Shown here in pieces: positions 46,133-59,456 of a stretch of DNA of 64,000 nucleotides; the first letter of the stretch is position 1, and each line of letters opens with the position of its first letter. A program made the translations under genes and the position numbers. The DNA is taken from positions 1,744,468-1,808,467 of the forward strand of contig JAHCIY010000002.1 of assembly GCA_026128965.1 (NCBI GenBank). Reading direction: 5' to 3'. The DNA comes from Labilithrix sp. (GTDB taxonomy: Bacteria; Myxococcota_A; Polyangia; Polyangiales; Polyangiaceae). The notes beneath the pieces are model-generated. The model was not told the DNA's origin. It saw only the letters and a program-made list of their open reading frames with translations, and searched no databases.

Positions 46133-47626
46133 ATGATCGGCCGCCGTGACGCATTGAAGGGGATCGCCGTCGCGGCCGCGCTCGCCGCGTGCGGCACCGA
46201 GGACGAGGTCCCGCCGCCGGTCGATCCCGTCTTCGGCCACGGCGTCGCGAGCGGCGATCCGCTCTCGAACGCCGTCATCCTCTGGACGCGCATCTCGTCG
46301 ACCGCGACCGCGCCCGTCACCGGCCGCTGGCAGATCGCCGAGGACGCCACCTTCGCGCGCGTCGTCGCGAGCGGCACCTTCGAGACGAACGCGGACCGCG
46401 ACTACACGGTCAAGGTCGACGCGATCGGCCTCGCGCCGGCGACGACCTACTACTACCGCTTCCTCGTCCGCGAGCGCGCCTCGATGACGGGGCGCACGCG
46501 GACGGCGCCGATCGACGCGCGGCCGGTGCGCTTCGCGGTCGTGTCGTGCGCGAGCCTCCCGCACGGGTACTTCCACGCCTACCGCGCGCTCGCGCGGCGC
46601 CCCGACATCGACGCGGTGCTCCACCTCGGCGACTACCTCTACGAATACGCCGACGGCGCCTACGGCTCGGTCCGCCGCTCCGAGCCGCGCCACGCGCTGC
46701 AGACGCTCGCCGATTACCGCGCGCGTTATGCGCAATACCGGCGCGATCGCGACCTCCAGGAGGTGCACCGGCAGCATCCGTTCGTCTGCATTTGGGACGA
46801 TCACGAGCACATCGACAACGCGTATCGAGACGGGACGACGGGCGACAACCCCGCGCTCGGCGACTGGCCCGCGCGCCGGAGCGCGGCCGCGCGGGCGTAT
46901 TCGGAGTGGATCCCGATTCGCGATCAGCCGGACGGGCGGATATGGCGATCATTGCGCTACGGGGAGCTGGTCGACCTCGTCCTCCTCGATACCCGAATAT
47001 GGGGACGCGATATCCAATTGGGGCCGGACGATCCGGGCCTCGCCGACCCCGCGCGCCAGCTCCTCGGCGCCGATCAGGAGGTGTGGCTCGCCGCGGCGCT
47101 GCGCACGTCCCGCGCGCGGTGGAAGCTCGTCGCGCAGCAGGTGATGATGACGGCGGTGCCGTCCTGGTTCCGCGACGACGGCTGGGACGACTACCCCGCG
47201 GCGCGCTCGCGCTTCTACGACGTGCTCGAGGAGACGCCGGTCCGCGACGTCGTCGTGCTCTCCGGCGACGTGCACTCGTCGTGGGCGAGCGAGCTCTCGC
47301 GCGGCCCCGGCGCGCCGCCGCTCGCGGTGGAGCTCATCACGCCGGCGGTGACGTCGCCCGGCGCCTCGCGCCGCTCCGCGCCCGCGCTCCTCGCCGACGC
47401 GCCGTGGATCAAATACGTCGAGCTCGTGCGGCGCGGCTTCATGCTCGTCGACGTGACCGCGCGGCGCGTGCACGCCGCCTGGTTCCACGTCGACGACGTC
47501 GAGGACGAGCAGGGCGCCGCGACGAGCTTCGCCGCGGGCTACGCGACGTACGCCGGCGATCCGCGCCTCGTGAGCGAGCCGGAGGAGCCGGCGGTGCTCG
47601 TCACCGCGCCGCTCGCGCCCGCCTGA
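46133..47626 (+). CDS. phoD: Alkaline phosphatase D family (PhoD-like) with Tat signal
   Basis: Start MIGRRDALKGIAVAAALAAC (twin-arginine) with an aggag RBS. PhoD-like metallophosphatase blocks are present (LHLGDYLYEY, IWDDHE, VLSGDVHSSWA). Confidence 0.78.
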   Translation: MIGRRDALKGIAVAAALAACGTEDEVPPPVDPVFGHGVASGDPLSNAVILWTRISSTATAPVTGRWQIAEDATFARVVASGTFETNADRDYTVKVDAIGLAPATTYYYRFLVRERASMTGRTRTAPIDARPVRFAVVSCASLPHGYFHAYRALARRPDIDAVLHLGDYLYEYADGAYGSVRRSEPRHALQTLADYRARYAQYRRDRDLQEVHRQHPFVCIWDDHEHIDNAYRDGTTGDNPALGDWPARRSAAARAYSEWIPIRDQPDGRIWRSLRYGELVDLVLLDTRIWGRDIQLGPDDPGLADPARQLLGADQEVWLAAALRTSRARWKLVAQQVMMTAVPSWFRDDGWDDYPAARSRFYDVLEETPVRDVVVLSGDVHSSWASELSRGPGAPPLAVELITPAVTSPGASRRSAPALLADAPWIKYVELVRRGFMLVDVTARRVHAAWFHVDDVEDEQGAATSFAAGYATYAGDPRLVSEPEEPAVLVTAPLAPA

Positions 47627-47635
47627 GCGTGTATC

Positions 47636-48733
47636 GTGGCTCGCATGACGGAAGCGGTCCAGCGGCCTCCCGCCGAGGTCACGTACGCCGCCGAGCTCGC
47701 GCGGCTCGCGAAGAGCGACGACGCCCCCGCGCCGCCGGGCTGGAGGCTCTCCGCGCGCGCAGTGCGCACGTTCATCCTCGGCGACGAGAAGCGGCAGGTC
47801 CGCCGCAAGTTCGTCGGGCAGCCCTCGCTCGTCGACCGCGCGATGGTAGCCCTCGCGACCGGGCGCGGGCTCATGCTGGTAGGAGAGCCCGGGACCGCGA
47901 AGTCGCTCCTGAGCGAGCTGCTCGCGGCGGCGGTGAGCGGCGACTCCACGCGCACGATCCAGGGGAGCGCGGCGACGACGGAGGACCAGATCAAGTATTC
48001 GTGGAACTACGCGCTGCTCCTCGCGGAGGGCCCCACGCCGCGCGCGCTCGTGCCGGCGCCGCTCTACCGCGCGATGGAAGCGGGCGCGATCGTGCGCTTC
48101 GAGGAGGTGACGCGCTGCCCGCTCGAGGTCCAGGACTCGCTCCTCGCCGTGCTCTCGGACCGCGTGCTCGCGGTGCCGGAGCTCACCGGTCCCGACGCGA
48201 TGCTCTTCGCGAAGGACGGCTTCAACGTGATCGCGACCGCGAACACGCGTGACCTCGGCGTGAACGAGATGAGCGCCGCGCTGAAGCGACGCTTCAACTT
48301 CGAGACGGTGTTCCCGATCGCGGACCTCGCGACCGAGATCGCGCTCGTGCGCGCCGAGGCGGCGCGGCTCCTCGCGCGCTCGGGCGTCACCGCGCCGCTG
48401 CCGGAGGAGGTGCTCGAGCTCCTCGTGACGACGTTCCGCGAGCTCCGCGCGGGGGAGACGACCGACGGCCAGGCGACCGATCGCCTCTCGACCGCGATGA
48501 GCACCGCGGAGGCGGTGAGCGTCGCGCACGCGGTCGGGGTGCGCGGCCACTACCTCGCCGCCGGCGCGCCGACGCCGGGCGATCTCGTCGAGTGCCTCGT
48601 CGGCGCGGCGGTGAAGAGCAACAACGACGACCTCGCGCGCCTGCGGCGGTACTTCGAGCAGCGGGTGGGCCGCAAGAACGGCGCGCACTGGAAGGCGTTC
48701 TACGAGGCCCGTCACAAGATCCCGGGGTCGTGA
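47636..48733 (+). CDS. MoxR-like AAA+ ATPase (AAA_5, YehL-like)
   Basis: Walker A GEPGTAKS, sensor/Walker B region, ATANTRDLG...RRF. 365 aa. First gene of the five-gene cassette. Confidence 0.8.
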   Translation: MARMTEAVQRPPAEVTYAAELARLAKSDDAPAPPGWRLSARAVRTFILGDEKRQVRRKFVGQPSLVDRAMVALATGRGLMLVGEPGTAKSLLSELLAAAVSGDSTRTIQGSAATTEDQIKYSWNYALLLAEGPTPRALVPAPLYRAMEAGAIVRFEEVTRCPLEVQDSLLAVLSDRVLAVPELTGPDAMLFAKDGFNVIATANTRDLGVNEMSAALKRRFNFETVFPIADLATEIALVRAEAARLLARSGVTAPLPEEVLELLVTTFRELRAGETTDGQATDRLSTAMSTAEAVSVAHAVGVRGHYLAAGAPTPGDLVECLVGAAVKSNNDDLARLRRYFEQRVGRKNGAHWKAFYEARHKIPGS

Positions 48734-50991
48734 GCGCGCCGCTCCACGTCGTCGGCGTCCGCCATCACAGCCCGGCGTGCGCGCGGCTCGTCGCGGAGAC
48801 GATCGCGGAGGTCGATCCCGACGTCGTCCTCGTCGAAGGTCCCGCTGACTTCAACGACCGCATCGACGAGCTCCGCCTCGCGCACCGCCCGCCGATCGCG
48901 CTCTTCAGCTTCGCGCACGGGGACGGGATCCGGCACGCGAGCTGGTCGCCCTTCTGCGCGTACTCGCCGGAGTGGGTCGCGCTCCGGAGCGGCGGCGAGC
49001 GGCGCGCGACGTTCTTCATCGACCTCCCCGCTTGGAGCGACGCGTTCGCGGCGGTGGAGAACCGGTACTCCGATCGAACGGCGAAGAGCCTCGACGCGCT
49101 CGCGGCGCGGTTCGGGGTGGAGACGACGGACGCGCTGTGGGACCACCTCTTCGAGCAGCCGCTCGCGGCGGGCGCGCTGCGGGAGCGGCTCGGCGCGTAC
49201 TTCGCGGAGCTCCGCGCGAGCGACGAGCCGGCGAGCGAGAGCGATCTCGCGCGCGAGGCGTACATGGCGCGGTGGATCGCGTGGGCGCGGGCGCGGGCGG
49301 AGCGCGCGGTGATGGTGGTGTGCGGCGGCTACCACGCGCCGGCGCTGGAGCGCGTGGGGGGCGACGCGAGCGCGGAGCGGCCCGCGGCGCCGGAGCGCGC
49401 GGGGATCGCGCGCGCGGGGACGTACCTCGTGCCGTACTCCTTCCATCGCCTCGACGCGTTCGTCGGCTACGAAGCGGGGATGCCGTCGCCCGCGTTCTAC
49501 CAGCGCGTGTGGGAGCGCGGCGCGGACGCGGCCGGCGAGGACATGTTGTTCGCGGCGGTCGCGCATCTGCGAAAGCGAAAGCAGCGCGTCTCGCCCGCCG
49601 ACGCGATCGCGGCGCTCACGCTCGCGCGTGGCCTCCGTACGCTGCGCGGACGCGAGGCGCTCGCGCGCGAGGACGTGCTCGACGGGCTCGCGGCGTCGCT
49701 CGTGAAGGACGCGCTCGACGCGCCGCTGCCGTGGAGCAGGCGCGGGACGATCCAGCGAGGGACCGCGCCGCTGCTCGTCGAGATCGTCGCCGCGTTCTCC
49801 GGCGACGCGGTGGGCGAGCTCGCGAAGGGCACGCCGCATCCGCCGCTCGTCGCGGACGCGTTCGCCGAGCTCGTGCGCGTCGGCGTCGTGCTCGAGCGCG
49901 CGGGGCGCACGCTCGCGGTCGATCTCTCGGCGCCGGAGGAGCGCGAGCGGAGCCGCGTCCTCCATCGCCTTCGTGTGCTCGCGATCCCCGGCGTCGCGCT
50001 CGCGCGCAGGCGCTCCGTCCTCGTCGAGGAGTGGAGCGTCGCGCGTTCCCTCGACGCGGAGGCGGCGCTGATCGAGGCCGCGGCGTGGGGAGCGTCGCTC
50101 GAGTCGGCGGCGGCGGCGCGGCTCGAAGACCACGCCGCCGGGGCGCGCGGGATGGCGGCGCTCGTGCGCGTGCTCGAGGCCGCGGCGCGGATCGGGATCG
50201 ACGCGCTCGCGCTCCGCGTCGCGGCGGAGGTCCGCGCCGCGATCGACGTCGAGCGATCGTTCGCCGATCTCGGGGCGGGGCTCGCGGCGCTGGTCGCGCT
50301 CCACGCGCACGACGTCCTCTTCGGCGCCGAGGGCGCGCCGCTGATCGGGGCGGCGATCGCGGCGGCGTACGAGCGCGGGCTCTGGCTGTGCGAAGGCGTC
50401 GCGGGCGCGGCGGGGGAAGGGGAGATCCGCGCCGTCCTCGCGCTCCGCGACGCGCTCGCGCGGCGCGGCGCCTCGCTCGGTCTCGATCCCGCGCTCGCGG
50501 AGGCGGTGATGGCGCGACGCGCGGTGGATCCGGACGCCCCGGCGGCGCTGCGCGGCGCGGCGTTCGGGTTCGGCGCGCGGAGCGAGAGCGTCGTCGCGGC
50601 GGTCGGGAGGATGGGGCGGCCGGAGACGCTCGGCGATTTCCTCGCCGGGTTGTTCGCCCTCGCGCGCGAGGAGATGGGGCGATCGGAGGAGCTCCTCCGC
50701 GTCGTCGACGACCTCGTCGGGCGGATGGATCGCGCGGACTTCTTGCGCGCGATCCCGTCGCTGCGGATGGCGTTCGAGTGGTTCCCGCCGCGCGAGAAGG
50801 AGGCGATCGCGCGCGCGGTGCTCTCGCTCCATTCGCTTCGTTCGCCTCTCTCTCTCTCTCTCGAGACGCCGGCGCGGAGCCTCACGCGGCTCGACGTCTC
50901 TGCCGCCGTGGTCGTGCGCGGGCTCGAGGTCGACGCCGCGGTCACCGCGCTCGCGCGGCGCTATGGCCTCGGCGACGGAGCGGAGTCGTGA
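48730..50991 (+). CDS. Large hypothetical protein, YehM/DUF5682-like
   Basis: GTG start overlapping the MoxR stop (GTGA). About 750 aa, Ala/Leu/Arg-rich helical protein. The N-terminal block VVGVRHHSPACARLV...VLVEGP is reminiscent of the DUF5682 family that accompanies MoxR/VWA/SWIM genes. Confidence 0.6.
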   Translation: MSAPLHVVGVRHHSPACARLVAETIAEVDPDVVLVEGPADFNDRIDELRLAHRPPIALFSFAHGDGIRHASWSPFCAYSPEWVALRSGGERRATFFIDLPAWSDAFAAVENRYSDRTAKSLDALAARFGVETTDALWDHLFEQPLAAGALRERLGAYFAELRASDEPASESDLAREAYMARWIAWARARAERAVMVVCGGYHAPALERVGGDASAERPAAPERAGIARAGTYLVPYSFHRLDAFVGYEAGMPSPAFYQRVWERGADAAGEDMLFAAVAHLRKRKQRVSPADAIAALTLARGLRTLRGREALAREDVLDGLAASLVKDALDAPLPWSRRGTIQRGTAPLLVEIVAAFSGDAVGELAKGTPHPPLVADAFAELVRVGVVLERAGRTLAVDLSAPEERERSRVLHRLRVLAIPGVALARRRSVLVEEWSVARSLDAEAALIEAAAWGASLESAAAARLEDHAAGARGMAALVRVLEAAARIGIDALALRVAAEVRAAIDVERSFADLGAGLAALVALHAHDVLFGAEGAPLIGAAIAAAYERGLWLCEGVAGAAGEGEIRAVLALRDALARRGASLGLDPALAEAVMARRAVDPDAPAALRGAAFGFGARSESVVAAVGRMGRPETLGDFLAGLFALAREEMGRSEELLRVVDDLVGRMDRADFLRAIPSLRMAFEWFPPREKEAIARAVLSLHSLRSPLSLSLETPARSLTRLDVSAAVVVRGLEVDAAVTALARRYGLGDGAES

Positions 50992-52112
50992 GCGAGGCGC
51001 TCGTACGCTGGCGGCTCATGCTCGGCGCGGCGGCGGGCGACGGGCTCGGCGCGGGCGGCGAGCTCGGCGGCGACGACGCGGCCTGCGACGCCGCGCTCGC
51101 GTGGCTCTACGAGCGCGATCGCGATCGGGCGGAGCGGGACGTCCGGAGCCGCGCGGGCGGCGACGGGGCTTCGCAGCTCACGGTGCCGGAGTGGCTCGAC
51201 GAGGTGCACCGGCTCTTCCCGCGCGAGACGATCGAGCGGCTCGAGCGCGACGCGGTGGAGCGCTACCAGATCCACGAGATCGTCACGAACGCGGAGGTGC
51301 TCCAGCGCGTGGAGCCGAGCACGACGCTCTTGAAGGCGGTGCTCCGCACGAAGCACCTGATGAACGCGGAGCTGCTCGGGCTCGCGCGCGACCTCGCGGC
51401 GAAGGTCATCGCGCGCCTCATGGAGAAGCTCGCGCGGAAGGTGCGCTCCGCCTTCACCGGGGCGCGCGCGCGCCGGCCTTCCCGCGTCAAGCTCGCGCGC
51501 GCGTTCGACGCGAAGCGGACGATCAAGAGCAACCTCCGGCGCTGGGACCGCGCGCGGAGGCGCCTCGGCATCGACGCGCCGCTCTTCCACTCGCACACGC
51601 GGCGGAGCTGCGAGAGGTGGCAGGTGATCCTCCTCGTCGACGAGAGCGGCAGCATGCTCGGCTCGGTGATCCACGCCGCCGTCACCGCGGCGTGCCTCTG
51701 GGGGCTGCCCGGCGTGAAGACGCACCTCTGCATCTTCGACACGAAGGTCGTCGACCTGACCGAGTCGGTCACCGATCCGGTCGAGGTCCTGATGCGCGTG
51801 CAGCTCGGCGGCGGCACGGACATCGGCAAGGCGGTCGCGTACGCCGCGTCGCTCGTGGAGTCGCCGCGGCGCGCGATCGTCGCGGTCGTCAGCGACTTCT
51901 ACGAAGGTGGAGACGCGGAGGTCCTCGTCGCGCGGGTGCGGGCGCTCGCGGAGCAGGGCGTCACCGTGCTCGGTCTCGCCGCGCTCGACGAGGAGGCGCG
52001 GCCTGCCTACGACAAGGACCTCGCGCAGCGCCTCGTGAACGCGGGCGCGCACGTCGGCGCGATGACGCCGGGAGAGCTCGTCGACTTCGTCGCGAGGGCG
52101 ATCCAACCATGA
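50988..52112 (+). CDS. VWA (von Willebrand factor A) domain protein
   Basis: GTG start overlapping the upstream stop (GTGA). MIDAS motif DESGS in ILLVDESGSMLGS; VWA fold at the C-terminus. Confidence 0.68.
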   Translation: MSEALVRWRLMLGAAAGDGLGAGGELGGDDAACDAALAWLYERDRDRAERDVRSRAGGDGASQLTVPEWLDEVHRLFPRETIERLERDAVERYQIHEIVTNAEVLQRVEPSTTLLKAVLRTKHLMNAELLGLARDLAAKVIARLMEKLARKVRSAFTGARARRPSRVKLARAFDAKRTIKSNLRRWDRARRRLGIDAPLFHSHTRRSCERWQVILLVDESGSMLGSVIHAAVTAACLWGLPGVKTHLCIFDTKVVDLTESVTDPVEVLMRVQLGGGTDIGKAVAYAASLVESPRRAIVAVVSDFYEGGDAEVLVARVRALAEQGVTVLGLAALDEEARPAYDKDLAQRLVNAGAHVGAMTPGELVDFVARAIQP

Positions 52113-54106
52113 GCCGCGGCGACCTTCGCGCGCTGACGCCGGAGGCGATCGCGGCGCTCGCGAACCTCGGCCTCGTGAAGCGGGCGCAGCGCGAGATCGA
52201 GGCGGGCAAGGGTCCCGTGCTCGCCGAGAGCGGCGGGGCGGTCACCGCGACGTTCGCCGACGGCGTCGTGACGACGCTCCCGCCGGACAAGCCGTTCACT
52301 GGCGCAGAGTGCACCTGCGGCGCGAGCGCGGTCTGCCGCCACCGCGTCGCGCTCGCGCTGGCCTACGCCGCGAGCGCGCCGGCGAGCGCGCGCGCGTGGT
52401 CACCGGCGTCGTTCGACGACGCCGCGTTCTCGCCGGCCGTTCGCAAGCGCGCGGACACGCTCGCGAAGAAGGGCATCGTCATCGAGCTCGAGCCGAGCGC
52501 GGCGCGCCTCCCGACGACGACGGTCCGCTTCCTGGTCCCGGAGCGCCTCGACTACGCGCAATGCGACTGCACCGCCGCGAAGCCATGCGCGCACATGCTC
52601 CTCGCGGTGCGCGCCTTCCGCGAAGCCGCACACCTCGGCCGCGAGCCGCCATGCACCATCGACCTCGACGCGCCCCGACCAATGCCGACTTCACGAACCT
52701 CGAAACACGGCGCCACTCACGCGGACGCCGCGTCGGGAGACGCGCGGCCGCTTCCGCCCGGCGAGGCGGCGCGGCCGCTTCCGCCCGGCGAGGCGGCGTC
52801 GGGGGCGCTTCACGTCGGCGAGGCGCTTGCGTTGGTCGAGCGGGTTCTTGTCGGTGGGGTGGTGGGCGTGCCGGAGGAGGAGGCGTGGTTCGTGCGTGTG
52901 AGCGAGGCGCTCGCGCGGGAGCGGCTCGTGTGGCTGCGTGTGATCGTGGAGCGGGTCGCGGCGTTGCTCGCGGCGTACCGCGCCCGGAGCGCGCGGTATC
53001 GGACCGGCGATCTCGTCTTCCTCCTCGCGAGCCTCGCGGCGCGGTCGCGCGCGGCGGCGGAGCGAGGCGAGCTCCCGGCGCGGCGCTTGTTCGGGAGCGA
53101 CGAAGCGGAGGAGACGCCGCTCGATCGCGTGCGGCTCGTCTCGCTCGGCGCGCGCGTCGTCGCGGACGGGGAGCGCCGCGTCGCTTCGGTGTACCTCGCG
53201 GAGGCGTCGACCGGCGCGGTCTCCGCGCTCGAGCGAACGTTCGAAGCGCCGCGCGAGGGACCGGCGCTCGCGGGCCCCGCGCTCGCGAGCCGGAGCGTCG
53301 CGACGGGCGTGAAGCTCGGCGCGCTCGCGGCGGGCCAGCTCGTCACGCGCGCGGCGACGCGTCACGCGAGCCACGCGCTCACGCTGCGCGAACGACGCGG
53401 CGTGCAGTCTTCGGTCGCCCCGTCGACCGGCGATTGGGAGACGCTCCCGTCGTCGTTGCTCGTGCGTGGCCGCGACACGCTGGCGGAGCGCCTCGCTCGG
53501 CGACCGCCGCGGCTCTTGCGGCCGCCGGTGCTCGCGGAAGGCCTCGTCGTCCTCGCGGACGTGGAGGTGACCGCGGTCGCGTACCGCCCCGGCGACGAGG
53601 AGCTGATCGCGATCGCGAGCGGCATTCCGATCGTGCGCCGTCACTCGCGCGCGGCGCCCGCCGCGCTCGACGTCCTCGCGCGCGCGCTCGAAGCCGGGCC
53701 ACGCTTCATCGCGGGCGAAGCATCGTTCGGTCCGCACGGACTGATGCTCGATCCGACCGCGGTCGTCACCGATCGCGTCGTCGTACCCGATCTGGAAGAG
53801 GCGCCCGCGCTGCTCGAGCGTCTCCCACGCGCGGCGGCGGCGACGCGCACGGAGCTCGAGATCGCGGTGGAGCGCGCAGGCGCGGTGCTCGAGGAGTCGC
53901 TCCACGACGGGCTCGCGCATCTCGGACGTGGCTTCGCCGATCGGACGGAGGAGGCCGCGCGCACGGCGGCGGGTCGCGGCCTCGTCGGCCTCGAGCACCG
54001 GCTCCTCGCGCTGCGGTCCGCGCTCGCAGACCCCGCCGCCGCCGCGCGCGCATGGCTCGATCTCGCGATCCGGACGGAGCTGACGCGTGAAGCCATCACG
54101 GCATAG
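52109..54106 (+). CDS. SWIM zinc-finger protein (YehQ-like)
   Basis: ATG overlaps the VWA stop (ATGA). Two CxCx(n)CxH SWIM motifs (CTCGASAVCRH, CDCTAAKPCAHM). A long helical C-terminus. Contains a 30-bp tandem duplication (ARPLPPGEAA x2). Confidence 0.68.
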   Translation: MSRGDLRALTPEAIAALANLGLVKRAQREIEAGKGPVLAESGGAVTATFADGVVTTLPPDKPFTGAECTCGASAVCRHRVALALAYAASAPASARAWSPASFDDAAFSPAVRKRADTLAKKGIVIELEPSAARLPTTTVRFLVPERLDYAQCDCTAAKPCAHMLLAVRAFREAAHLGREPPCTIDLDAPRPMPTSRTSKHGATHADAASGDARPLPPGEAARPLPPGEAASGALHVGEALALVERVLVGGVVGVPEEEAWFVRVSEALARERLVWLRVIVERVAALLAAYRARSARYRTGDLVFLLASLAARSRAAAERGELPARRLFGSDEAEETPLDRVRLVSLGARVVADGERRVASVYLAEASTGAVSALERTFEAPREGPALAGPALASRSVATGVKLGALAAGQLVTRAATRHASHALTLRERRGVQSSVAPSTGDWETLPSSLLVRGRDTLAERLARRPPRLLRPPVLAEGLVVLADVEVTAVAYRPGDEELIAIASGIPIVRRHSRAAPAALDVLARALEAGPRFIAGEASFGPHGLMLDPTAVVTDRVVVPDLEEAPALLERLPRAAAATRTELEIAVERAGAVLEESLHDGLAHLGRGFADRTEEAARTAAGRGLVGLEHRLLALRSALADPAAAARAWLDLAIRTELTREAITA

Positions 54107-54115
54107 CCTGGGCGG

Positions 54116-57100
54116 ATGCGGCGCTTCGAGCTGAGCGAGGGCACGTCGAACAAGTTCTGGCAGGTCGCCATCGAAGACGGCAAGACCCTGCACGTCTCGT
54201 TCGGCAAGATCGGCACGAAGGGCCAGACGCAGCGAAAGGACTTCGCCGCACCCCCCGCCGCAACCGCGGAGATGGAGAAGCTGATCCGCGAAAAGACGAA
54301 GAAGGGCTACAAGGAGGTCGCGCCACCGCCCGCATCACCCGCGCCCGCGCCGTCCGCGCCCGCTCCGCCGCTCGGCGCGCCCCTGTCGTCGAAGGGGGAA
54401 GCTGCGGGCGATCGCGTCTTCTGGACTCCCGCGGCGAAGGCGATCCTCGAGAAGCAGCGTGGCGAGGCGGCGAAGGCGATCGTCCCTTCCGCGACCGGGG
54501 CGGGGGTCGTCATCGCGGAGCGGGTGCGGGCGGCGATGCCGCTCTGGGAGAAGGCGAAGCTGAAGTGGGAGGCGAGCGAGACGGCCGACGTCCGCGCGAA
54601 GCTCGAGGCCGGGTACGCCGAAGAGCCGCTGCCGGCGACGATCGATCCCGACGTCGAAGCGGCGGGCTGCACGCTCGCGGGGTACGACGACGACCATCGC
54701 GCGGCGTGGGTCGAACGCTGGCTCGCGCTCGGCGGGCCCGCGGTCGCGCTCGACGTCCTGTCGCGCATGTGGAGCTACTATCGCCACTACGACTCGTCGG
54801 GGGCGCGCGACGCGATGCCGACCTGGGTGACGCGCGTGGCGCCGGAGCGGAGCTGGGACTCGAGCGTGTGCGGCGCGAAGACGGACGTCGCGGAGGTGCT
54901 CGCGCGTCACTGCCGCGCGCTCGAGCCCGCCGAGCGCGCGGCGATGCGCGCGGCGGCGGTGAAGCTCCGCGCCGGCGCGCCGCTCACGGTGCGGATCGGG
55001 CTCGCGACCGCGGTCGACGACGCCGCGCTCGCGAACGAGGACGCGGCGGAGGTGCTCGCGCTCCCGCGCGATCAGGTCGGATACGACGCGAAGGTCCTCT
55101 TCCGCCTCGTCGACGATCCGAAGACCCTCGAAGGGCTCGCCGCGCGCTTCGGGCTCGACTGGACCTTCAAGAACGCCCTCGCCGTCGAGCGGATCGGGCT
55201 CGCCGCGACGCCGCTCCTCGTGAAGCAGCTCGAAGAGGCCGGGAGCCGCGACGCCGAGGTCGCGGTCGCGACCGTGCTCGCGACGCTCGAGCACGCCGAG
55301 ACGGCGCGCGTCTTCGGCGGCTGGCTCCACAAGAAGGGCGTCGACGCCGTCGCGCGCGACTTCTTCACGCGCCGCCCCGACCTCGCGCTGCCGGTGCTGA
55401 AAGGCATCGTCGCTTCAAGAGGTAAAAACATTATTTTCGCTGAATCGCTTTTGAAGGTCCTCGGCGCCGCGCCCGCCCCGGCGACCGAGGCGATGCCCGC
55501 GGCGGACGCGGCCGAGCTCCCGCGCGTGCTGGTCGAGCCGCCGTGGCTCGCGACCCCGCCGAAGCCGCCGCCGATCATCGAGGGCATCACGCTGCCGTTC
55601 GGGCCGGAGCGCATCGACGAAGAGATGGCGAAGGCGAGCCGGACGCCCGTCGTCGCCGGCGCGTCGGTGAAGTCGTGGTTCGCCGCCACCGCGAAGCTCG
55701 AGCCCAAGAGCGCCGCGATGGACCTCGCCGCGCGCTCGATGCTCGACGGGCTCTCGCGCCGCCACATCGGATCGTGGCTCGAGCTGATGAGCGACGCCGC
55801 CGCGCGGCAGGTCGTCATCGACGCGGCGAGCTTCGACGAGATGAGCCTCGCCACGGTGGAGGTCGCCGATCTCCGCTACGCGCTCGCGCGCTTCGGCCTC
55901 GACGCGCTCCCGCTCGTCTTGAACGTCGCGAAGGCGAACGGCCCCGGCGCGGCCGAGGCGCTCTCGATGGTCGAGTCCCCTCGCGCCGCCGTCGCCGTCG
56001 CCGCCGCGGCCGCGCGCTCGAAGAAGGCGCGCCCGAAGGCGGTCGCGTACTTCGCGAAGTACCCCGCCGCCTCCGCGCACGGCCTCTTGCCCGCTGCGCT
56101 CTCGAAGCGGACGCAGAAGACCCACGCGCCCGCGGTGAAGGTGCTCGCCGCCGTCGACGAGGCGGCCGTGCGCGCGGCGGCGGCGAAGGAGCCGCGCGTG
56201 CTCGCTGCGCTCGACGCGATCCTCGCCTGGGACGGACCGCCGCCGAAGATCGCGCCGCTCCCCGCCTGGCTCGATCCGAAGGCGCTCCCGCCCGTCGTGC
56301 TGCGCGCGGCCTCCCGCCGGCTCCCCGAGACCGCGGTCCGGCACCTCCTCACCCTCCTCGCGCTGAGCGAGCCGCGCGACGCGCATCCGCTCCTCGCCGA
56401 CGTGATCGCCGCGTGCACCGGCGCGTCGCTCGCGCGCTTCGCGTGGGCGCTCTTCGAGACGTGGCTCACGAACGGCGCCCCGGCGCCGGAGGACTGGATG
56501 ATGACCGCGCTCGGACACCTCGGCGGCGACGAGGCCGCGCGGCGCCTCACGCCGTTCGTCCGCGCGTGGCCCGGCGAGTCGGCGCACGCGCGCGCGGTGA
56601 AGGGGCTCGACGTCCTCGCCGAGATCGGGACCGACGTCGCGCTGATGCACCTCGACGCGATCGCGGAGAAGCTCAAGTTCAAGGGGCTGCAGGAGAAGGC
56701 GCGCGAGAAGATCGAGGACATCGCCGACGCGCGCGGCCTCACCCGCGACGAGCTCGCGGACCGCATCGCGCCGGCGCTCGATCTCGATCCCGACGGCTCG
56801 CGCGTGCTGTCGTTCGGCGCGCGCAGCTTCCGCGTGGGCTGGGGCGAGGACCTCGTCCCGTTCGTCGTCGACGAGACGAAGAGGAAGAGCGCCGACCTGC
56901 CGAAGCCGAAGGCGAGCGACGACAAGGCCGCCGCCGCGGAGGCGACCGCGACGTGGAAGGCGCTCAAGAAGGACGCGAAGGCGGTCGCGAGCAGCCAGAT
57001 CCTGCGCCTCGAGCGCGCGATGTGCACGGAGCGACGGTGGTCGGGCGCCGACTTCGAGCGCCTCCTCGTCGCGCATCCGCTCGTGTTCCACCTCGTGCGC

Positions 57101-57679
57101 CGGCTCGTGTGGGCGATCTACGAGGAGGACGCCGTCACGAAGACGTTCCGCGTCGCGGAGGACCGCACGCTCGCCGACGTGAACGACGATCCGTTCTCGC
57201 TCGCCGGCGACGCGGTGGTCGGCCTCCCGCACCGGCTCGTCCTCGCCGACGCCGACCTGCGCGCGTGGGGCGAGGTGTTCGGCAACTACGAGATCATCCA
57301 GCCGTTCGCGCAGCTCGATCGCGAGGTCTTCGCCGTGACCGAGCCGGAGCGCGCGGCGAAGGAGCTCGCGCGCGTGAAGGGCGTGGAGGTCCCGACCGGG
57401 AAGGTGCTCGGGCTCGAGCAACGCGGCTGGAAGAAGGGCGTGCCGCAAGACGCGGGCTGGATCTGGGACGTCGAGAAGGAGCTGCCCCGCGGCCTCCGCG
57501 CGACGCTCCCGCTCGAAGGCGACGGCGGGCTCCTCGCCGGCGCGATGGCGGAGTCGCCGCCGGAGCAGAAGCTCGGCGCCGTCGTCGTGCGCGGCCGCGA
57601 CGGCGTCGTCGCCCTCGGCGACCTCCCGCGCATCGTCTTCAGCGAGCTCGTCCGCGACCTCGAGGGCCTCCGCGCGTAG
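54116..57679 (+). CDS. WGR-domain + DUF4132 protein (MolR/YehI-like)
   Basis: N-terminal WGR domain (FELSEGTSNKFWQVAIEDGKTLHVSFGKIGTKGQTQRK...KLIREKTKKGYKEV) followed by about 1100 aa of helical repeats characteristic of DUF4132 proteins. Starts 9 nt after the SWIM gene. Confidence 0.68.
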   Translation: MRRFELSEGTSNKFWQVAIEDGKTLHVSFGKIGTKGQTQRKDFAAPPAATAEMEKLIREKTKKGYKEVAPPPASPAPAPSAPAPPLGAPLSSKGEAAGDRVFWTPAAKAILEKQRGEAAKAIVPSATGAGVVIAERVRAAMPLWEKAKLKWEASETADVRAKLEAGYAEEPLPATIDPDVEAAGCTLAGYDDDHRAAWVERWLALGGPAVALDVLSRMWSYYRHYDSSGARDAMPTWVTRVAPERSWDSSVCGAKTDVAEVLARHCRALEPAERAAMRAAAVKLRAGAPLTVRIGLATAVDDAALANEDAAEVLALPRDQVGYDAKVLFRLVDDPKTLEGLAARFGLDWTFKNALAVERIGLAATPLLVKQLEEAGSRDAEVAVATVLATLEHAETARVFGGWLHKKGVDAVARDFFTRRPDLALPVLKGIVASRGKNIIFAESLLKVLGAAPAPATEAMPAADAAELPRVLVEPPWLATPPKPPPIIEGITLPFGPERIDEEMAKASRTPVVAGASVKSWFAATAKLEPKSAAMDLAARSMLDGLSRRHIGSWLELMSDAAARQVVIDAASFDEMSLATVEVADLRYALARFGLDALPLVLNVAKANGPGAAEALSMVESPRAAVAVAAAAARSKKARPKAVAYFAKYPAASAHGLLPAALSKRTQKTHAPAVKVLAAVDEAAVRAAAAKEPRVLAALDAILAWDGPPPKIAPLPAWLDPKALPPVVLRAASRRLPETAVRHLLTLLALSEPRDAHPLLADVIAACTGASLARFAWALFETWLTNGAPAPEDWMMTALGHLGGDEAARRLTPFVRAWPGESAHARAVKGLDVLAEIGTDVALMHLDAIAEKLKFKGLQEKAREKIEDIADARGLTRDELADRIAPALDLDPDGSRVLSFGARSFRVGWGEDLVPFVVDETKRKSADLPKPKASDDKAAAAEATATWKALKKDAKAVASSQILRLERAMCTERRWSGADFERLLVAHPLVFHLVRRLVWAIYEEDAVTKTFRVAEDRTLADVNDDPFSLAGDAVVGLPHRLVLADADLRAWGEVFGNYEIIQPFAQLDREVFAVTEPERAAKELARVKGVEVPTGKVLGLEQRGWKKGVPQDAGWIWDVEKELPRGLRATLPLEGDGGLLAGAMAESPPEQKLGAVVVRGRDGVVALGDLPRIVFSELVRDLEGLRA

Positions 57680-57704
57680 CGCGCAGCGCTATCATCGCGC
57701 CGTC

Positions 57705-58529
57705 GTGCGCGCCTTCCTGCCTCTGCTCTTGCTCGCGGCGTGCTCGAAGCCCGCGCCCTCGAGCACGCAAGCGCCCGTCGAGAGCGTCACGGCGGAGGAC
57801 CTCGACCTCCCGATCCCCGAGCCGGCGCCGCCGCTCGCGACGTCGAGCGGGCCCCTCACGCCGTGGATCGCGGAGTCGGCGACGTGGAAGCGCCGCGGGC
57901 CGCCGCCGACGACGTACTCGCTGTTCTCGCTCCCGGAGGGCTCGTCCGTCCTCGTGTACGCCACGATGACGCGTGACGCGTGCGAGGCGGAGCTCGACAA
58001 GCGTAAGATCGCGTTCCGCCGCGCGGCCGATCTCCCCGGCGTGCGCGCGCCGGTCCAGCTCGACGGTCCGCTCCACGGCGTGACGTACCGCTCGCGCGCG
58101 CCGCACACCGAGATCGACTGCCGGCTCGTCCTCGCGCTCGACGACTTCTCCGTCGCCCTCGCCGCGCGCGACGTGATCGGCGCGCAGGTCTATTCGTCCT
58201 ACCGCTCGCCGTCGGAGAACGGGTGCACGGACAAGTACGCCGGCGAGCAGCACTGCGCCGCGCTCGCGGTCGACATCGGCCAGTTCGACAAGCGCGACAA
58301 GACGAAGCTCGTCGTCGAGAAGGACTTCCACGGCCGCATCGGCTCGCTCACGTGCAAGTCGGGCGTCGGACCGAAGCCGGTGACGCCGGCCGCGACCGAG
58401 CTCTGGGACCTCGTCTGCGGCGCGGCCGGGCGGCAGTTCTCCGTCATCCTGACGCCGAACTGGAACCAGCAGCACAAGAACCACTTCCACCTCGAGCTGA
58501 CGACGCACGACTGGGTCCTGGTTCGTTGA
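57705..58529 (+). CDS. Extensin-like C-terminal-domain lipoprotein
   Basis: Lipoprotein signal (LPLLLLAACSKP). C-terminal region with conserved Cys and NHFHLEL-type motif. Confidence 0.45.
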   Translation: MRAFLPLLLLAACSKPAPSSTQAPVESVTAEDLDLPIPEPAPPLATSSGPLTPWIAESATWKRRGPPPTTYSLFSLPEGSSVLVYATMTRDACEAELDKRKIAFRRAADLPGVRAPVQLDGPLHGVTYRSRAPHTEIDCRLVLALDDFSVALAARDVIGAQVYSSYRSPSENGCTDKYAGEQHCAALAVDIGQFDKRDKTKLVVEKDFHGRIGSLTCKSGVGPKPVTPAATELWDLVCGAAGRQFSVILTPNWNQQHKNHFHLELTTHDWVLVR

Positions 58530-58580
58530 CGCCGAATAAAAGTCCTTGCGACTCTTTCTGATTCCGTCACACTGAACCCG

Positions 58581-59456
58581 ATGACGGAGCGTATGCGCGC
58601 GGCGCTGGAGGGCCTCTCGGTGGGCGACGCCTTCGGTGAGCAGTTCTTCGGGCCGCCTGGGATCGTGCTCGAGCGGATCGCGGAGCGGACGGCGCCGGCG
58701 GCGGCGGTATGGCAGTGGACCGACGACACCGCGATGGCGCTCGCGATCGCCCTCGTGCTGGACGCGCACGGCAAGGTCGACCGCGACGCGCTCGCGACGG
58801 CGTTCGCGGATCGCTACCGCGCGGACCCGATGCGCGGCTACGGCGGCACCGCGCACGGGATCCTGCAGGCGATCGGCGCCGGCGTGCCGTGGGCGGTCGC
58901 GGCGGGCCGCGTGTTCGACGGCCAGGGCTCGATGGGCAACGGCGGCGCGATGCGCGCGGCGCCGATCGGCGCGTACTTCGCCGGCGATCTCGAGCGCACG
59001 ATCGCGGAGGCGCGCGCGTCCGCCGAGCCGACCCACGCGCACCCCGACGGTCAGGCCGGCGCGATCGCGGTCGCGGTCGCGGCGGCGATCGCGTGCCGGC
59101 GTCCGCTCGTCGCCGGCGCCGCGCTCCTCGAGGAGGTCGTGTTTCACACGCCGCCGGGCGCCACGCGCGACGGACTCGCGAAGGCGCTCGCGCTGCCGCT
59201 CACCTACGATCCGCGGACCGCCGCCGCCGCGCTCGGCACCGGCGCTCGCGTCATCTCGTCCGACACCGTTCCGTTCGCGCTGTGGTGCGCCGCTCGTCAC
59301 CTCGACTCGTACGAAGAGGCGATGTGGACGACGGTCTCCGGCCTCGGCGATCGCGACACGACGTGCGCGATCGCGGGCGGCGTCGTCGCCTGCGCCGTCG
59401 GCGTGGAGGGGATCCCCGCGACGTGGCGCGCGCGCCGCGAGCCGCTTCCGCGTTAG
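58581..59456 (+). CDS. ADP-ribosylglycohydrolase family protein (DraG/ARH-like)
   Basis: N-terminal LEGLSVGDAFGEQFF and D-rich metal-binding blocks (WQWTDDTAMALA, GSMGNGGAMRAAPIG, GDRDTTCAIAGG). Confidence 0.75.
   Translation: MTERMRAALEGLSVGDAFGEQFFGPPGIVLERIAERTAPAAAVWQWTDDTAMALAIALVLDAHGKVDRDALATAFADRYRADPMRGYGGTAHGILQAIGAGVPWAVAAGRVFDGQGSMGNGGAMRAAPIGAYFAGDLERTIAEARASAEPTHAHPDGQAGAIAVAVAAAIACRRPLVAGAALLEEVVFHTPPGATRDGLAKALALPLTYDPRTAAAALGTGARVISSDTVPFALWCAARHLDSYEEAMWTTVSGLGDRDTTCAIAGGVVACAVGVEGIPATWRARREPLPR

Follow-up and report, generated by a model that had tools for sequence, protein, structure and literature searches.

Gene content and organization

The window, i.e. the whole 64,000-nucleotide stretch of Labilithrix sp. 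DNA analysed here (contig JAHCIY010000002.1), contains a cassette of five co-directional genes that spans positions 47636–57679 in the order L-M-P-Q-I (g1–g5). The features discussed below are as follows:

55–903: PARG-like gene (microbial PARG; PF10021, 2e-45; signature GGGFLGGARAQEE)
47636–48733, + strand: g1 (L), MoxR-family AAA+ ATPase, YehL subfamily, 365 aa
47882–47905, + strand: g1 Walker A, GEPGTAKS
48089–48106, + strand: g1 Walker B, IVRFEE
48730–50991, + strand: g2 (M), DUF5682 protein, YehM-type, 753 aa
48730–49479, + strand: g2 N-domain, TIKI/TraB/ChaN-like alpha/beta, ∼250 aa
48754–48771, + strand: g2 motif GVRHHS
48826–48843, + strand: g2 motif VLVEGP
49321–49335, + strand: g2 motif CGGYH
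50988–52112, + strand: g3 (P), CoxE-type VWA protein, 374 aa
51639–51653, + strand: g3 MIDAS motif DESGS, intact (aa 218)
52109–54106, + strand: g4 (Q), YehQ-type double-SWIM protein, 665 aa
52310–52342, + strand: g4 SWIM motif 1, CTCGASAVCRH, CxCx5CxH form (aa 68)
52562–52594, + strand: g4 SWIM motif 2, CDCTAAKPCAH, CxCx5CxH form (aa 152)
54116–57679, + strand: g5 (I), MolR/YehI-type WGR-DUF4132 protein, 1187 aa
54116–54325, + strand: g5 WGR domain, N-terminal, PARP-like
56888–57430, + strand: g5 DUF4132 domain, C-terminal
58581–59456: g7, ADP-ribosylglycohydrolase (ARH) gene (PF03747, 3e-53)

All five cassette ORFs lie at these coordinates, and the same genes were recovered independently with a GC-frame log-odds gene caller. 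Three junctions are 4-nt overlaps (GTGA at 48730 for g1/g2, GTGA at 50988 for g2/g3 and ATGA at 52109 for g3/g4), and a 9-nt gap before 54116 separates g4 from g5. This packing had been reported in a preliminary description of the DNA, and every junction was found at the position given there; translational coupling of all five genes in this order is near certain. A phoD gene abuts the cassette, with the g1 start 9–18 nt past the phoD stop; g1 has an alternative ATG start at 47645.

Conservation of the gene set

We clustered all genes of 80 related loci from at least six phyla together with those of the window. Only five families are conserved (L in 79, M in 77, P in 75, Q in 65 and I in 64), which confirms the earlier suggestion that the five genes are kept as a unit, and no sixth conserved family was found around the cassette in the 80 loci. 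The commonest order is I-L-M-P-Q with one to four copies of I, and in roughly one locus in five no I gene lies closer than 10 kb. Junction overlaps are conserved as well, with median gaps of −1 (L-M), −4 (M-P), −4 (P-Q) and +2.5 nt (I-L).

BLASTP comparison with E. coli proteins gives full-length identities of 64.6% (g1 with YehL), 38% (g2 with YehM) and 53% (g3 with YehP), 31% over 600 aa for g4 with YehQ and 32–35% for g5 with YehI/YehH, and the WGR domain of g5 is 49% identical to YehF. The range of 31–65% bears out the proposal that this is a yehI/yehLMPQ-type locus, and with near certainty the Labilithrix cassette corresponds by orthology to the E. coli yehL-yehM-yehP-yehQ operon plus a molR/yehI-type WGR-DUF4132 gene. 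The YehL subfamily of MoxR ATPases derives from the classification of Snider and Houry, as cited in PMC3893208. These comparisons establish gene content, orthology and conservation of the cassette.

The E. coli set (yehLMPQ, molR, i.e. the yehF/yehH pseudogene, and yehI) shares with Labilithrix the same five families, the L-M-P-Q order, overlapping junctions and the same lack of a known function. By contrast, WGR-DUF4132 genes lie upstream and often in tandem in E. coli and most loci, whereas Labilithrix has a single copy downstream of Q. A yehK-like small gene is present in the E. coli locus but not in the cassette, and phoD adjoins the first gene in Labilithrix, unlike in E. coli. Within E. 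coli, the cassette is core-like, present as a single chromosomal copy in 5353 of 5426 complete genomes (98.7%). The gene set is widespread and uncharacterised: it had been described as functionally unassigned, and our literature and structure searches returned neither a functional study nor a solved structure of the core, nor did the searched literature report an experiment on any member.

Domain composition of the five proteins

The domain set named in the preliminary description (MoxR, YehM-like, VWA, SWIM and WGR-DUF4132) was recovered by Pfam search, with SWIM marginal. The g1 protein matches AAA_5 (1e-35); its best solved-structure match is to the AAA modules (AAA_5) of Midasin (6.8e-09). 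The g3 protein matches VWA_CoxE (2e-53) and presumably serves the MoxR ring as adaptor. Orthologues retain the Walker A/B and MIDAS motifs: Walker A is invariant in 78 L proteins, and 74 P orthologues preserve VDxSGS, GGGTD and DF.EG. Motif integrity and folds are established.

The g2 protein belongs to DUF5682 (1.5e-95) and consists of the N-domain followed by a HEAT-like helical solenoid. The fold of the N-domain, alpha/beta with a parallel sheet, matches those of a TraB protein and ChaN, and motifs with His or Glu after a strand, which would hold the candidate catalytic residues, are invariant throughout the family. In fold and in these motifs it resembles the TIKI/TraB/ChaN/erythromycin-esterase superfamily of 2His/2Glu hydrolases (PMC6254334). 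However, sequence similarity to the superfamily lies at the noise limit, with one weak Pfam match and no PDB match in a profile search, and the likeness is drawn from fold and motifs. DUF5682-VWA_CoxE fusion proteins account for five of eight long representatives.

Both SWIM motifs expected in g4 are present in CxCx5CxH form, and the Pfam SWIM match (9.5e-4; 19.1 bits) falls just under the gathering score of 19.6. The linker is of low complexity with a duplicated ARPLPPGEA, and Pfam search assigned no family to the C-terminal region. At least one CxCx5CxH motif occurs in 52 of 58 Q orthologues, and E. coli YehQ has two.

The g5 protein matches WGR (4e-17) and DUF4132 (5e-52), with a long HEAT-like solenoid between them. 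Its WGR fold matches those of PARP1 and PARP3, but the eponymous W-G-R, which is the family consensus, is F-G-K in g5. The closest known counterparts are the WGR domains of the DNA-break sensors PARP1/2/3 and of bacterial WGR-repeat proteins (PDB 2ra8); Pfam search found no PARP catalytic domain in g5, a putative DNA-binding protein. Divergence among I paralogues is greatest in the N-terminal helical region and smallest at the DUF4132 end. One DUF4132 variant (P0200), encoded directly upstream of AAA_5-DUF5682-VWA-SWIM, lacks WGR and has a zf-PARP-like C-terminus, a partial match below threshold (36.5 versus a gathering score of 39.3 bits).

Promoters of the DNA-damage type

Damage-type promoters are seen in relatives of the cassette, not in this myxobacterial window. 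The published in vivo motif of PafBC is tGTCgg(N10)tA(N3)T (PMC8635444). In 1.56 Mb, read on both strands, a strict form, TGTCRGTS-N8-TAnnnT, was found 10 times, each time on the coding strand ahead of an I or L gene. A relaxed form has 40 matches, of which 29 fall upstream of I or L, a region that makes up 2.3% of the sequence searched. Across 42 actinobacterial loci the motif precedes 27 of 118 I or L genes, 3 of 310 other genes and none of 122 M, P or Q genes (I or L versus other genes: odds ratio 30, p = 1.4e-13). It was found upstream of I or L in 24 loci and 8 of 16 genera, counts that are inflated by relatedness because 10 of the 24 loci are from Lentzea, and the exact motif is missing from the other 18. 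The actinobacterial loci show no enrichment of LexA boxes, except that one of them (L030) has, besides the PafBC finding, a perfect box TCGAACATATGTTCGA 6 nt before its I gene.

In E. coli, molR is a canonical LexA/SOS gene and is listed with those whose SOS box is known (PMC6590174); we located the box AACTGGATAAAATTACAGGG 25 nt upstream of yehF. Documented SOS control there concerns molR, not yehLMPQ, and yehLM is transcribed from a separate promoter that H-NS silences (PMC3686432). In Deinococcus, a WGR gene (DR2173) and a DUF4132 gene (DRA0166) are de-repressed upon DdrO depletion (PMC8533742). Neither a damage-type promoter nor a LexA-like box, such as a counterpart of the molR SOS box, was found in the Labilithrix window. 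Damage-inducibility would also fit a phage- or prophage-sensing role. Myxococcota are not known to have PafBC.

Possible functions of the cassette

WGR domains are best known from PARPs, the ARH gene starts 900 nt downstream of g5 and the window contains a PARG-like gene, which together raise the idea of a circuit in which the WGR protein reads or recruits ADP-ribosylation, and ARH and the distal PARG reverse it. The preliminary description had pointed to both genes; they are real and correctly placed, but the functional link is not supported. Neither ARH nor g6, the intervening gene that encodes an exported lipoprotein, has a homologue in any of the 80 related loci, PARG lies 47 kb from the cassette beside a LigD primase-polymerase gene, and Pfam search found no PARP or ART catalytic domain in the cassette. 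Neighbourhood analysis thus largely refutes such a circuit, which we regard as very improbable. A second reading likens the cassette to the dedicated MoxR-VWA chaperones CoxD/CoxE, NorQ/NorD, CbbQ/CbbO and RavA/ViaA: it would mature or reactivate a specific enzyme complex encoded elsewhere in the genome, and DUF5682, SWIM and DUF4132 would be assembly scaffolds without particular ties to DNA. Maturases of this kind that have been characterised are encoded beside their client (nor, cbb and cox clusters); unlike them, the cassette has no conserved client enzyme gene or sixth family in the 80 loci, and it has three more large conserved partners (DUF5682, SWIM and WGR-DUF4132). The MoxR hexamer and the MIDAS-bearing adaptor of the CoxE Pfam family are shared with these systems, and the same mechanical principle is likely, with an acidic residue gripped by MIDAS and the client remodelled by the ATPase. 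The intact CoxE-type MIDAS, the behaviour of the cassette as an E. coli core gene set and the fact that MoxR proteins characterised to date are maturation factors (PMC3893208, PMC7159879) all speak for a maturase, but the WGR, SWIM and zf-PARP-like modules and the damage-type promoters would be left unexplained, and we consider it unlikely.

An anti-phage or anti-mobile-element conflict system is a possible but doubtful reading. Ends of foreign DNA would be detected by WGR and SWIM, with MoxR-VWA as the threshold switch and either the DUF5682 TIKI-like domain or an unlinked factor as effector; the tandem, diverging WGR-DUF4132 paralogues would be arms-race sensors. MoxR-vWA pairs are switches in predicted conflict systems (PMC7159879) and in the experimentally studied Esr pathway (PMC13622651); one to four tandem I genes with divergent N-terminal regions, a PLD-like gene directly downstream in one locus and damage-type regulation, compatible with sensing prophage induction, agree with this. 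So does horizontal spread, suggested by H-NS silencing of the E. coli locus and by the 64.6% identity of its MoxR to that of a myxobacterium. However, PADLOC gave no match for any of the five proteins; the flanks are heterogeneous and housekeeping in nature (114 flanking genes in the 80 loci represent 162 Pfam families, none with more than three members), with only generic kinase-type PADLOC matches. Phages yielded one weak match in 50,697 records and plasmids 37 in 72,556, mostly megaplasmids. The distribution is core-like rather than patchy, because a single chromosomal copy occurs in nearly all complete E. coli genomes. These results do not support the earlier defence-island idea. Membership of the ternary systems of Kaur, Burroughs, Iyer and Aravind (2020; VMAP, iSTAND, FtsH and beta-propeller types; PMC7159879), also proposed earlier, is not supported either: MoxR AAA+, a CoxE-derived vWA and extra large components are shared, and both are predicted NTP-dependent switches, but the cassette lacks the defining third components and vWA-fused effector domains, has a marginal Pfam match to bpMoxR (27.4 versus 27 bits) over just 52 residues, is not confined to multicellular bacteria, and SWIM, WGR, YehL and DUF4132 are unmentioned in that work.

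Genome comparison points to a putative role in the DNA-damage response over ADP-ribosylation or a classical phage-defence island. Our preferred reading, held tentatively at a probability of about 0.45, is that the cassette encodes a cytoplasmic, DNA-damage-induced AAA+/MIDAS remodelling machine that is targeted to DNA by WGR. Midasin/Rea1 of eukaryotic ribosome assembly offers a parallel in its AAA_5 motor, MIDAS logic and nucleoprotein target (a predicted one for the cassette); it joins six AAA modules and a C-terminal MIDAS in a single giant polypeptide, whereas the cassette has its motor, MIDAS protein and scaffolds on separate genes.

For this remodelling machine we infer complex formation, DNA binding, a client and catalytic activity. 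The five proteins would form an ATP-driven complex belonging to the DNA-damage response, in which WGR-DUF4132 would do the targeting: recognition of DNA breaks or ends would fall to its PARP-type WGR and the choice of a partner to its variable HEAT solenoid, and the conserved DUF4132 end would attach it to the core. Through its MIDAS site, the CoxE-type VWA would hold a client or the adaptor by an acidic residue and couple it to the hexameric MoxR ATPase, which is the working mode of NorQD, CbbQO, RavA-ViaA and Midasin. DUF5682, taken to be physically tied to the VWA protein because fusions of the two exist, would supply a HEAT scaffold, and its TIKI/TraB-type His/Glu hydrolase domain may cut or de-esterify the client; the SWIM zinc fingers may add DNA or protein contacts. 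The likely overall result would be that a protein or nucleoprotein complex at damaged DNA is remodelled at the expense of ATP, and possibly removed by proteolysis.

Gene content and domain organization of the cassette

The window (G+C ~70–75%) was matched exactly to a Labilithrix sp. MAG of the phylum Myxococcota (proteins P0001 and P0121). The cassette consists of g1–g5, which represent families L, M, P, Q and I, respectively:

55–903, + strand: microbial-type PARG gene (PF10021, 2e-45; signature GGGFLGGARAQEE)
905–1834, − strand: LigD primase-polymerase domain gene (PF21686, 1e-77)
46133–47626, + strand: PhoD-like phosphatase gene, ending 9 nt before g1
47636–48733, + strand: g1 (L), YehL-type MoxR AAA+ ATPase (Pfam AAA_5, 1e-35)
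48730–50991, + strand: g2 (M), DUF5682 protein (Pfam DUF5682, 1.5e-95)
50988–52112, + strand: g3 (P), CoxE-type VWA protein (Pfam VWA_CoxE, 2e-53)
52109–54106, + strand: g4 (Q), SWIM protein (Pfam SWIM, marginal at 19.1 bits vs a gathering score of 19.6 bits)
54116–57679, + strand: g5 (I), WGR-DUF4132 protein (Pfam WGR, 4e-17, and DUF4132, 5e-52)
57705–58529, downstream of g5: g6, lipoprotein with an Extensin-like_C domain
58581–59456, downstream of g6: g7, ADP-ribosylglycohydrolase (ARH)

The five-gene order, coordinates and overlapping stop and start codons of the preliminary description were reproduced by exact open reading frame matches and by an independent caller based on codon-position GC log-odds, which recovered all five genes and preferred the ATG at 47645 as the start of g1. 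Three junctions are overlaps (i.e. GTGA at g1–g2 and g2–g3, and ATGA at g3–g4), while g4 and g5 are separated by a 9-nt gap. The phoD stop lies only 9 nt from g1, which leaves the cassette in this genome without a separate intergenic promoter region; scans of 45.5–60 kb for sigma-70 promoters and intrinsic terminators were uninformative. Pfam searches on the five proteins bore out the proposed domains (AAA_5, DUF5682, VWA_CoxE, WGR and DUF4132), with SWIM marginal. The Walker A (GEPGTAKS) and Walker B (IVRFEE) motifs of g1 and the MIDAS motif of g3 (DESGS) are intact; the g3 VWA domain spans aa 148–365 of 374, i.e. the protein ends with it. The g4 protein contains two CxCx5CxH SWIM motifs. In the low-complexity stretch that links the SWIM region to the C-terminal part, RPLPPGEAA is repeated in tandem and in frame (two copies; aa 213–230, window 52745–52798).

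Identity and conservation across genomes

The cassette had been described as a yehI/yehLMPQ-type locus, and this identification is right. In E. coli K-12 the locus order is yehF (WGR), yehH (molR pseudogene), yehI (DUF4132), yehK, yehL, yehM, yehP and yehQ. BLASTP gave full-length matches of g1 to YehL (64.6% identity over 364 aa, E=2e-170), g2 to YehM (38%), g3 to YehP (53%) and g4 to YehQ (31%); g5 shares 32% identity with YehI and 35% with YehH, and its WGR domain 49% with that of YehF. As in the yehLMPQ/molR-yehI type, a YehL-orthologous MoxR ATPase (g1) is followed, in the same order and equally tightly packed, by DUF5682, CoxE-type VWA and SWIM genes, and a DUF4132 protein, which may or may not carry WGR, is linked (g5). 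The Labilithrix locus is orthologous to a system that is annotated but has no assigned function: full-text literature searches found no functional study on DUF4132, DUF5682 or the yeh genes, and apart from the AAA and WGR modules no cassette component has sequence relatives in the PDB. The yehLMPQ/molR genes are among the larger conserved E. coli gene blocks still without a function. YehL is the name of one of seven MoxR subfamilies (PMC3893208), and it is the sole one without a characterised client reported in the literature searched.

A survey of one genome per species with DUF5682 as probe found relatives in at least 553 species, and a full scan of 1.84 billion cluster representatives returned 2,426, of which 659 were at E<=1e-30. 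Every predicted protein of the window and of 80 loci, drawn from Myxococcota, Actinomycetota, Acidobacteriota, Planctomycetota, Vulcanimicrobiota and Proteobacteria, was then clustered (81 gene sets). Exactly five families are common to the gene sets: L (79/81), M (77/81), P (75/81), Q (65/81) and I (64/81, 116 proteins). The next commonest family occurs in only 13 loci and follows lineage-specific synteny; clusters 5, 6, 8, 9 and 11 recur almost only in Lentzea loci. The five genes are therefore a conserved unit in relatives, as had been supposed. The canonical layout is I (one to four tandem copies) followed by L, M, P and Q, and the L-M-P-Q order is kept in nearly all of the 80 loci; the window order, L-M-P-Q-I, is a minority form also found in L011, L014 and L033, and in Labilithrix luteola I is divergent from L. 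Median intergenic distances are short or negative (L-M −1, M-P −4, P-Q −4, I-L +2.5 and I-I +84 nt), which indicates that translational coupling is a family trait. The L Walker motifs and the P MIDAS motif are conserved across the family, and SWIM motifs are present in 52 of 58 Q proteins. Of eight exceptionally long DUF5682 representatives, five are DUF5682-VWA_CoxE fusions, which argues that M and P act as one physical unit, with the caveat that, across a 4-nt overlap, two gene calls could also be joined by one indel or an error in the assembly.

Some loci depart from this layout. L082 (Deinococcus taeanensis plasmid p_TS293_3, 4774–12820) is a distant subtype with the order SWIM, DUF5691, AAA, small ORF, DUF5682 and VWA, and without DUF4132; a relationship between the YehQ C-terminus and this DUF5691 was rejected, as BLASTP found no similarity between g4 and the DUF5691 protein. 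L083 (MAG GCA_964485035.1, 10001–21449) is a variant cassette whose DUF4132 protein lacks WGR and carries a C-terminal zf-PARP-like segment below the Pfam cut-off; directly downstream of its SWIM gene lies an 856-aa PLD-like protein (PLDc_2 twice), a possible effector in this lineage. In two Dactylosporangium loci (L031, 15991–19530; L040, 16218–19754) a gene of ~1178 aa directly follows Q. Two proteins of the flank set match DNA Pol III alpha families (DNA_pol3_alpha, PHP and HHH_6) and are presumed to be these post-Q genes, DnaE2-like; if so assigned, they would be another damage-response neighbour.

Damage-type regulation of related loci

Relatives of the cassette components are under three unrelated damage regulators, i.e. 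LexA in E. coli, DdrO in Deinococcus and PafBC in Actinomycetota, and damage-type promoters or operators occur in all three lineages. For E. coli, a published list of SOS genes whose SOS box is known includes molR (PMC6590174), and we located an SOS box, AACTGGATAAAATTACAGGG, upstream of yehF at a distance of 25 nt. Depletion of DdrO in D. radiodurans strongly de-represses DR2173 (WGR) and DRA0165-DRA0166 (DUF4132) (PMC8533742). For Actinomycetota, the in vivo PafBC consensus is tGTCgg(N10)tA(N3)T (PMC8635444). A strict RecA-NDp-like pattern (TGTC[AG]GT[GC]-N7-9-TAnnnT, both strands) has 10 matches in 1.56 Mb of loci, all on the coding strand, at positions between 226 nt before and 4 nt past a predicted start; eight precede I and two precede L, in the I-less loci L048 and L075. 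The published consensus, written as the more relaxed TGTC[AG]G-N10-TA-N3-T, has 40 matches, and the zones of 400 nt that precede I or L, which make up 2.3% of the search space, contain 29 of these. When the 300 nt upstream of genes in 42 actinobacterial loci were searched for the exact motif, it preceded 27/118 I or L genes, compared with 3/310 other genes and 0/122 M, P or Q genes (Fisher odds ratio 30, p=1.4e-13; 24/42 loci, 8/16 genera), counts that are inflated by relatedness, since Lentzea contributes 10 of the 24 motif-bearing loci. Within tandem arrays, single I paralogues have their own copy of the motif (e.g. L050, L058 and L077).

In Dactylosporangium fulvum (L030), the PafBC motif is accompanied by a perfect LexA box, TCGAACATATGTTCGA, at 6 nt from the I start, an arrangement we liken to that of mycobacterial recA, where a RecA-NDp motif and an SOS box are combined (PMC8223512). 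This is the single perfect box in a scan that allowed up to two mismatches to TCGAAC-N4-GTTCGA; a general LexA-box enrichment in actinobacterial loci was rejected (5 matches in the 23 kb that precede I or L, compared with 174 in 1.54 Mb). Clusters of GAAC-N4-GTTC at the 3' end of Lentzea I genes (e.g. L050 5325, L058 5154 and L067 5045) are a trap for operator searches: they were discarded as operators because they encode a conserved C-terminal SELWF motif. MoxR1/2 and a VWA protein listed by M. smegmatis PafBC proteomics were likewise set aside, as no tie to this cassette family could be established. Two Sandaracinaceae-like MAGs share a near-palindrome ~60 nt upstream of the MoxR start (L017, ~8770, CGAAACCGATCGTTTC, GAAAC-N5-GTTTC; L020, ~7630, the imperfect CGAAACCGGTCGTTCC), which may be a lineage-specific operator.

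Near the window cassette, searches for the Myxococcus-type LexA box (CTRHAMRYBYGTTCAGS), the E. coli-type box and the Cheo box found none. To our knowledge, Myxococcota lack PafBC. A damage-type promoter or operator like those of the relatives was not found in the window.

Structure of the DUF4132 and DUF5682 proteins

In the predicted g5 model (pLDDT 90.3), the N-terminal WGR domain is followed by a HEAT/ARM-like solenoid of ~800 residues and a C-terminal alpha/beta DUF4132 region, for which no characterised structural relative was found. Among tandem I paralogues, identity is lowest in the N-terminal helical region (32–59%) and usually highest at the DUF4132 end (41–78%), a pattern that would fit a constant docking end combined with a variable recognition part. 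Besides WGR, a second PARP-type module occurs on I: P0200 and P0201 are DUF4132 proteins without WGR that end in a zf-PARP-like segment (a partial match, E=9e-9, 36.5 bits vs a gathering score of 39.3). The P0200 gene is directly upstream of AAA_5, DUF5682 and VWA_CoxE genes and a gene for a SWIM-motif protein, and its C-terminal end and position suggest that a second PARP-type DNA-lesion module was recruited to the same place in the system.

The predicted g2 model (pLDDT 90.2) comprises an N-terminal alpha/beta domain of ~250 residues, a small mixed domain and a HEAT-like solenoid. The N-terminal domain of DUF5682 qualifies as a TIKI alpha/beta fold. Its sequence profile retrieved only noise from PDB sequences, so the TIKI assignment is based on three things: fold, motifs and a single weak Pfam match (ChaN/Tiki in 1 of 13 N-domains, E=0.002). 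Active TIKI enzymes have a 2His/2Glu set plus a basic residue (PMC6254334). The DUF5682 motifs GVRHH (after strand 1), VL(I/V)EGP (strand 2) and CGGxH (a later strand) show little or no variation between phyla, E. coli and Deinococcus included, and the same applies to a number of Glu and Arg residues; the set, defined by sequence conservation, comprises H12/H13, E36, H202, E81/E142/E176 and R11/R19/R44. This conservation suggests that the N-domain is probably an active hydrolase.

Comparison with known systems

The preliminary description connected the cassette to ADP-ribosylation through the ARH and PARG genes, a link that is not supported. A tblastn search found no homologues of g6 or g7 in the 80 loci, the PARG gene is 47 kb from the cassette and abuts the LigD gene, and Pfam detected no PARP catalytic or ADP-ribosyltransferase domain in g5. 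PARP/ADP-ribosylation circuits combine a transferase catalytic domain with a conserved hydrolase partner, whereas the cassette lacks both, and the adjacency of ARH is best read as coincidence. The PARG and LigD genes are arranged tail-to-tail, with the PARG stop 1 nt from the end of the LigD gene, and represent a possible NHEJ/ADP-ribose pairing unrelated to the cassette. Elsewhere in the window, a 1197-aa Ser/Thr kinase fused to AAA_16/nSTAND1, a STAND-type NTPase (8931–12524, + strand), lies near a gene for a 557-aa protein with MutS domain V (13620–15293, − strand).

Two points still speak for a conflict role, the tandem, diverging I paralogues and signs of horizontal spread, i.e. high L identity across phyla and the silencing of E. 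coli yehLM by H-NS (PMC3686432), and the cassette may share the switch logic of the ternary MoxR-vWA conflict systems. In the four such systems of Kaur et al., the defining partner is of the VMAP, iSTAND, FtsH or beta-propeller type (PMC7159879); none of these third components is found in the five cassette proteins, and the 2020 paper mentions neither SWIM, WGR, YehL nor DUF4132, so the window cassette is not a member of that set. Their effector domains, on the vWA C-terminus or adjacent, are also missing from g3, and no effector family is conserved in the flanks. The idea of a defence island, raised earlier, is not supported either. PADLOC-DB 2.0 profiles gave zero matches to g1–g7 at E<=0.01. 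The flanks contain housekeeping genes: for the 114 genes that flank or interrupt the cassette in the 80 loci, matches were spread over 162 Pfam families, each seen in three members at most, and their PADLOC matches are only of generic kinase or ATPase type (2–3 members). By tblastn, relatives are nearly absent from phages (1 weak match in 50,697 records), and the 37 matches in 72,556 plasmid records are mostly to megaplasmids or mislabelled chromosomes. In E. coli the genes are core-like, with yehLMPQ in 5,353 of 5,426 complete genomes (median one copy, highest two) and 5,371 of 5,374 places on the chromosome. The cassette also shares a MoxR and MIDAS-VWA pair (AAA_5 plus VWA_CoxE, DESGS) with the client-linked maturases CoxDE, NorQD and CbbQO; in contrast to these, which have the client enzyme in the cluster, it has no sixth conserved gene family in the 80 loci.

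Proposed function and implications

We propose that the cassette has a remodelling role in the DNA-damage response, a reading to which we assign a probability of roughly 0.45; naming any specific client would be far more speculative. In this proposal, I would recruit the complex to damaged DNA or a protein located on it; P would couple the client to the L hexamer via its MIDAS site, by analogy with NorQD, CbbQO, RavA-ViaA and Midasin, where MIDAS sites mediate client coupling (background in PMC7159879); M would scaffold the complex and may hydrolyse the client; and Q could supply zinc-finger contacts. The core of the cassette includes a probable TIKI-type hydrolase fused or coupled to the MIDAS adaptor, with I as a putative targeting subunit whose PARP-type DNA-break-sensor modules are predicted to bind DNA.

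In eukaryotes, p97/Cdc48 with SPRTN/Wss1 combines an AAA+ unfoldase and a DNA-targeted protease for proteins stuck on DNA. That the cassette is a bacterial counterpart working on the Midasin principle is an analogy that we consider improbable. In such a damage-induced complex, lesions would be located by the WGR, SWIM or zf-PARP modules; once gripped by the MIDAS protein, the trapped protein would be pulled by the MoxR ring and then cleaved by the TIKI-type domain of DUF5682. If true, E. coli, actinomycetes and myxobacteria would share a pathway dedicated to the repair of DNA-protein cross-links or trapped topoisomerases that has been overlooked for decades.

Three features are of wider interest: the convergent damage regulation, the TIKI-like domain and the swap of sensor modules, none of which was found described for this system in the literature searched. 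Taken together, convergent damage regulation, sensor modules and a probable TIKI-type hydrolase turn an operon of 'function unknown' into a directly testable hypothesis. If the DNA-damage hypothesis holds, the cassette would represent a new ATP-driven module in bacterial DNA-damage tolerance.
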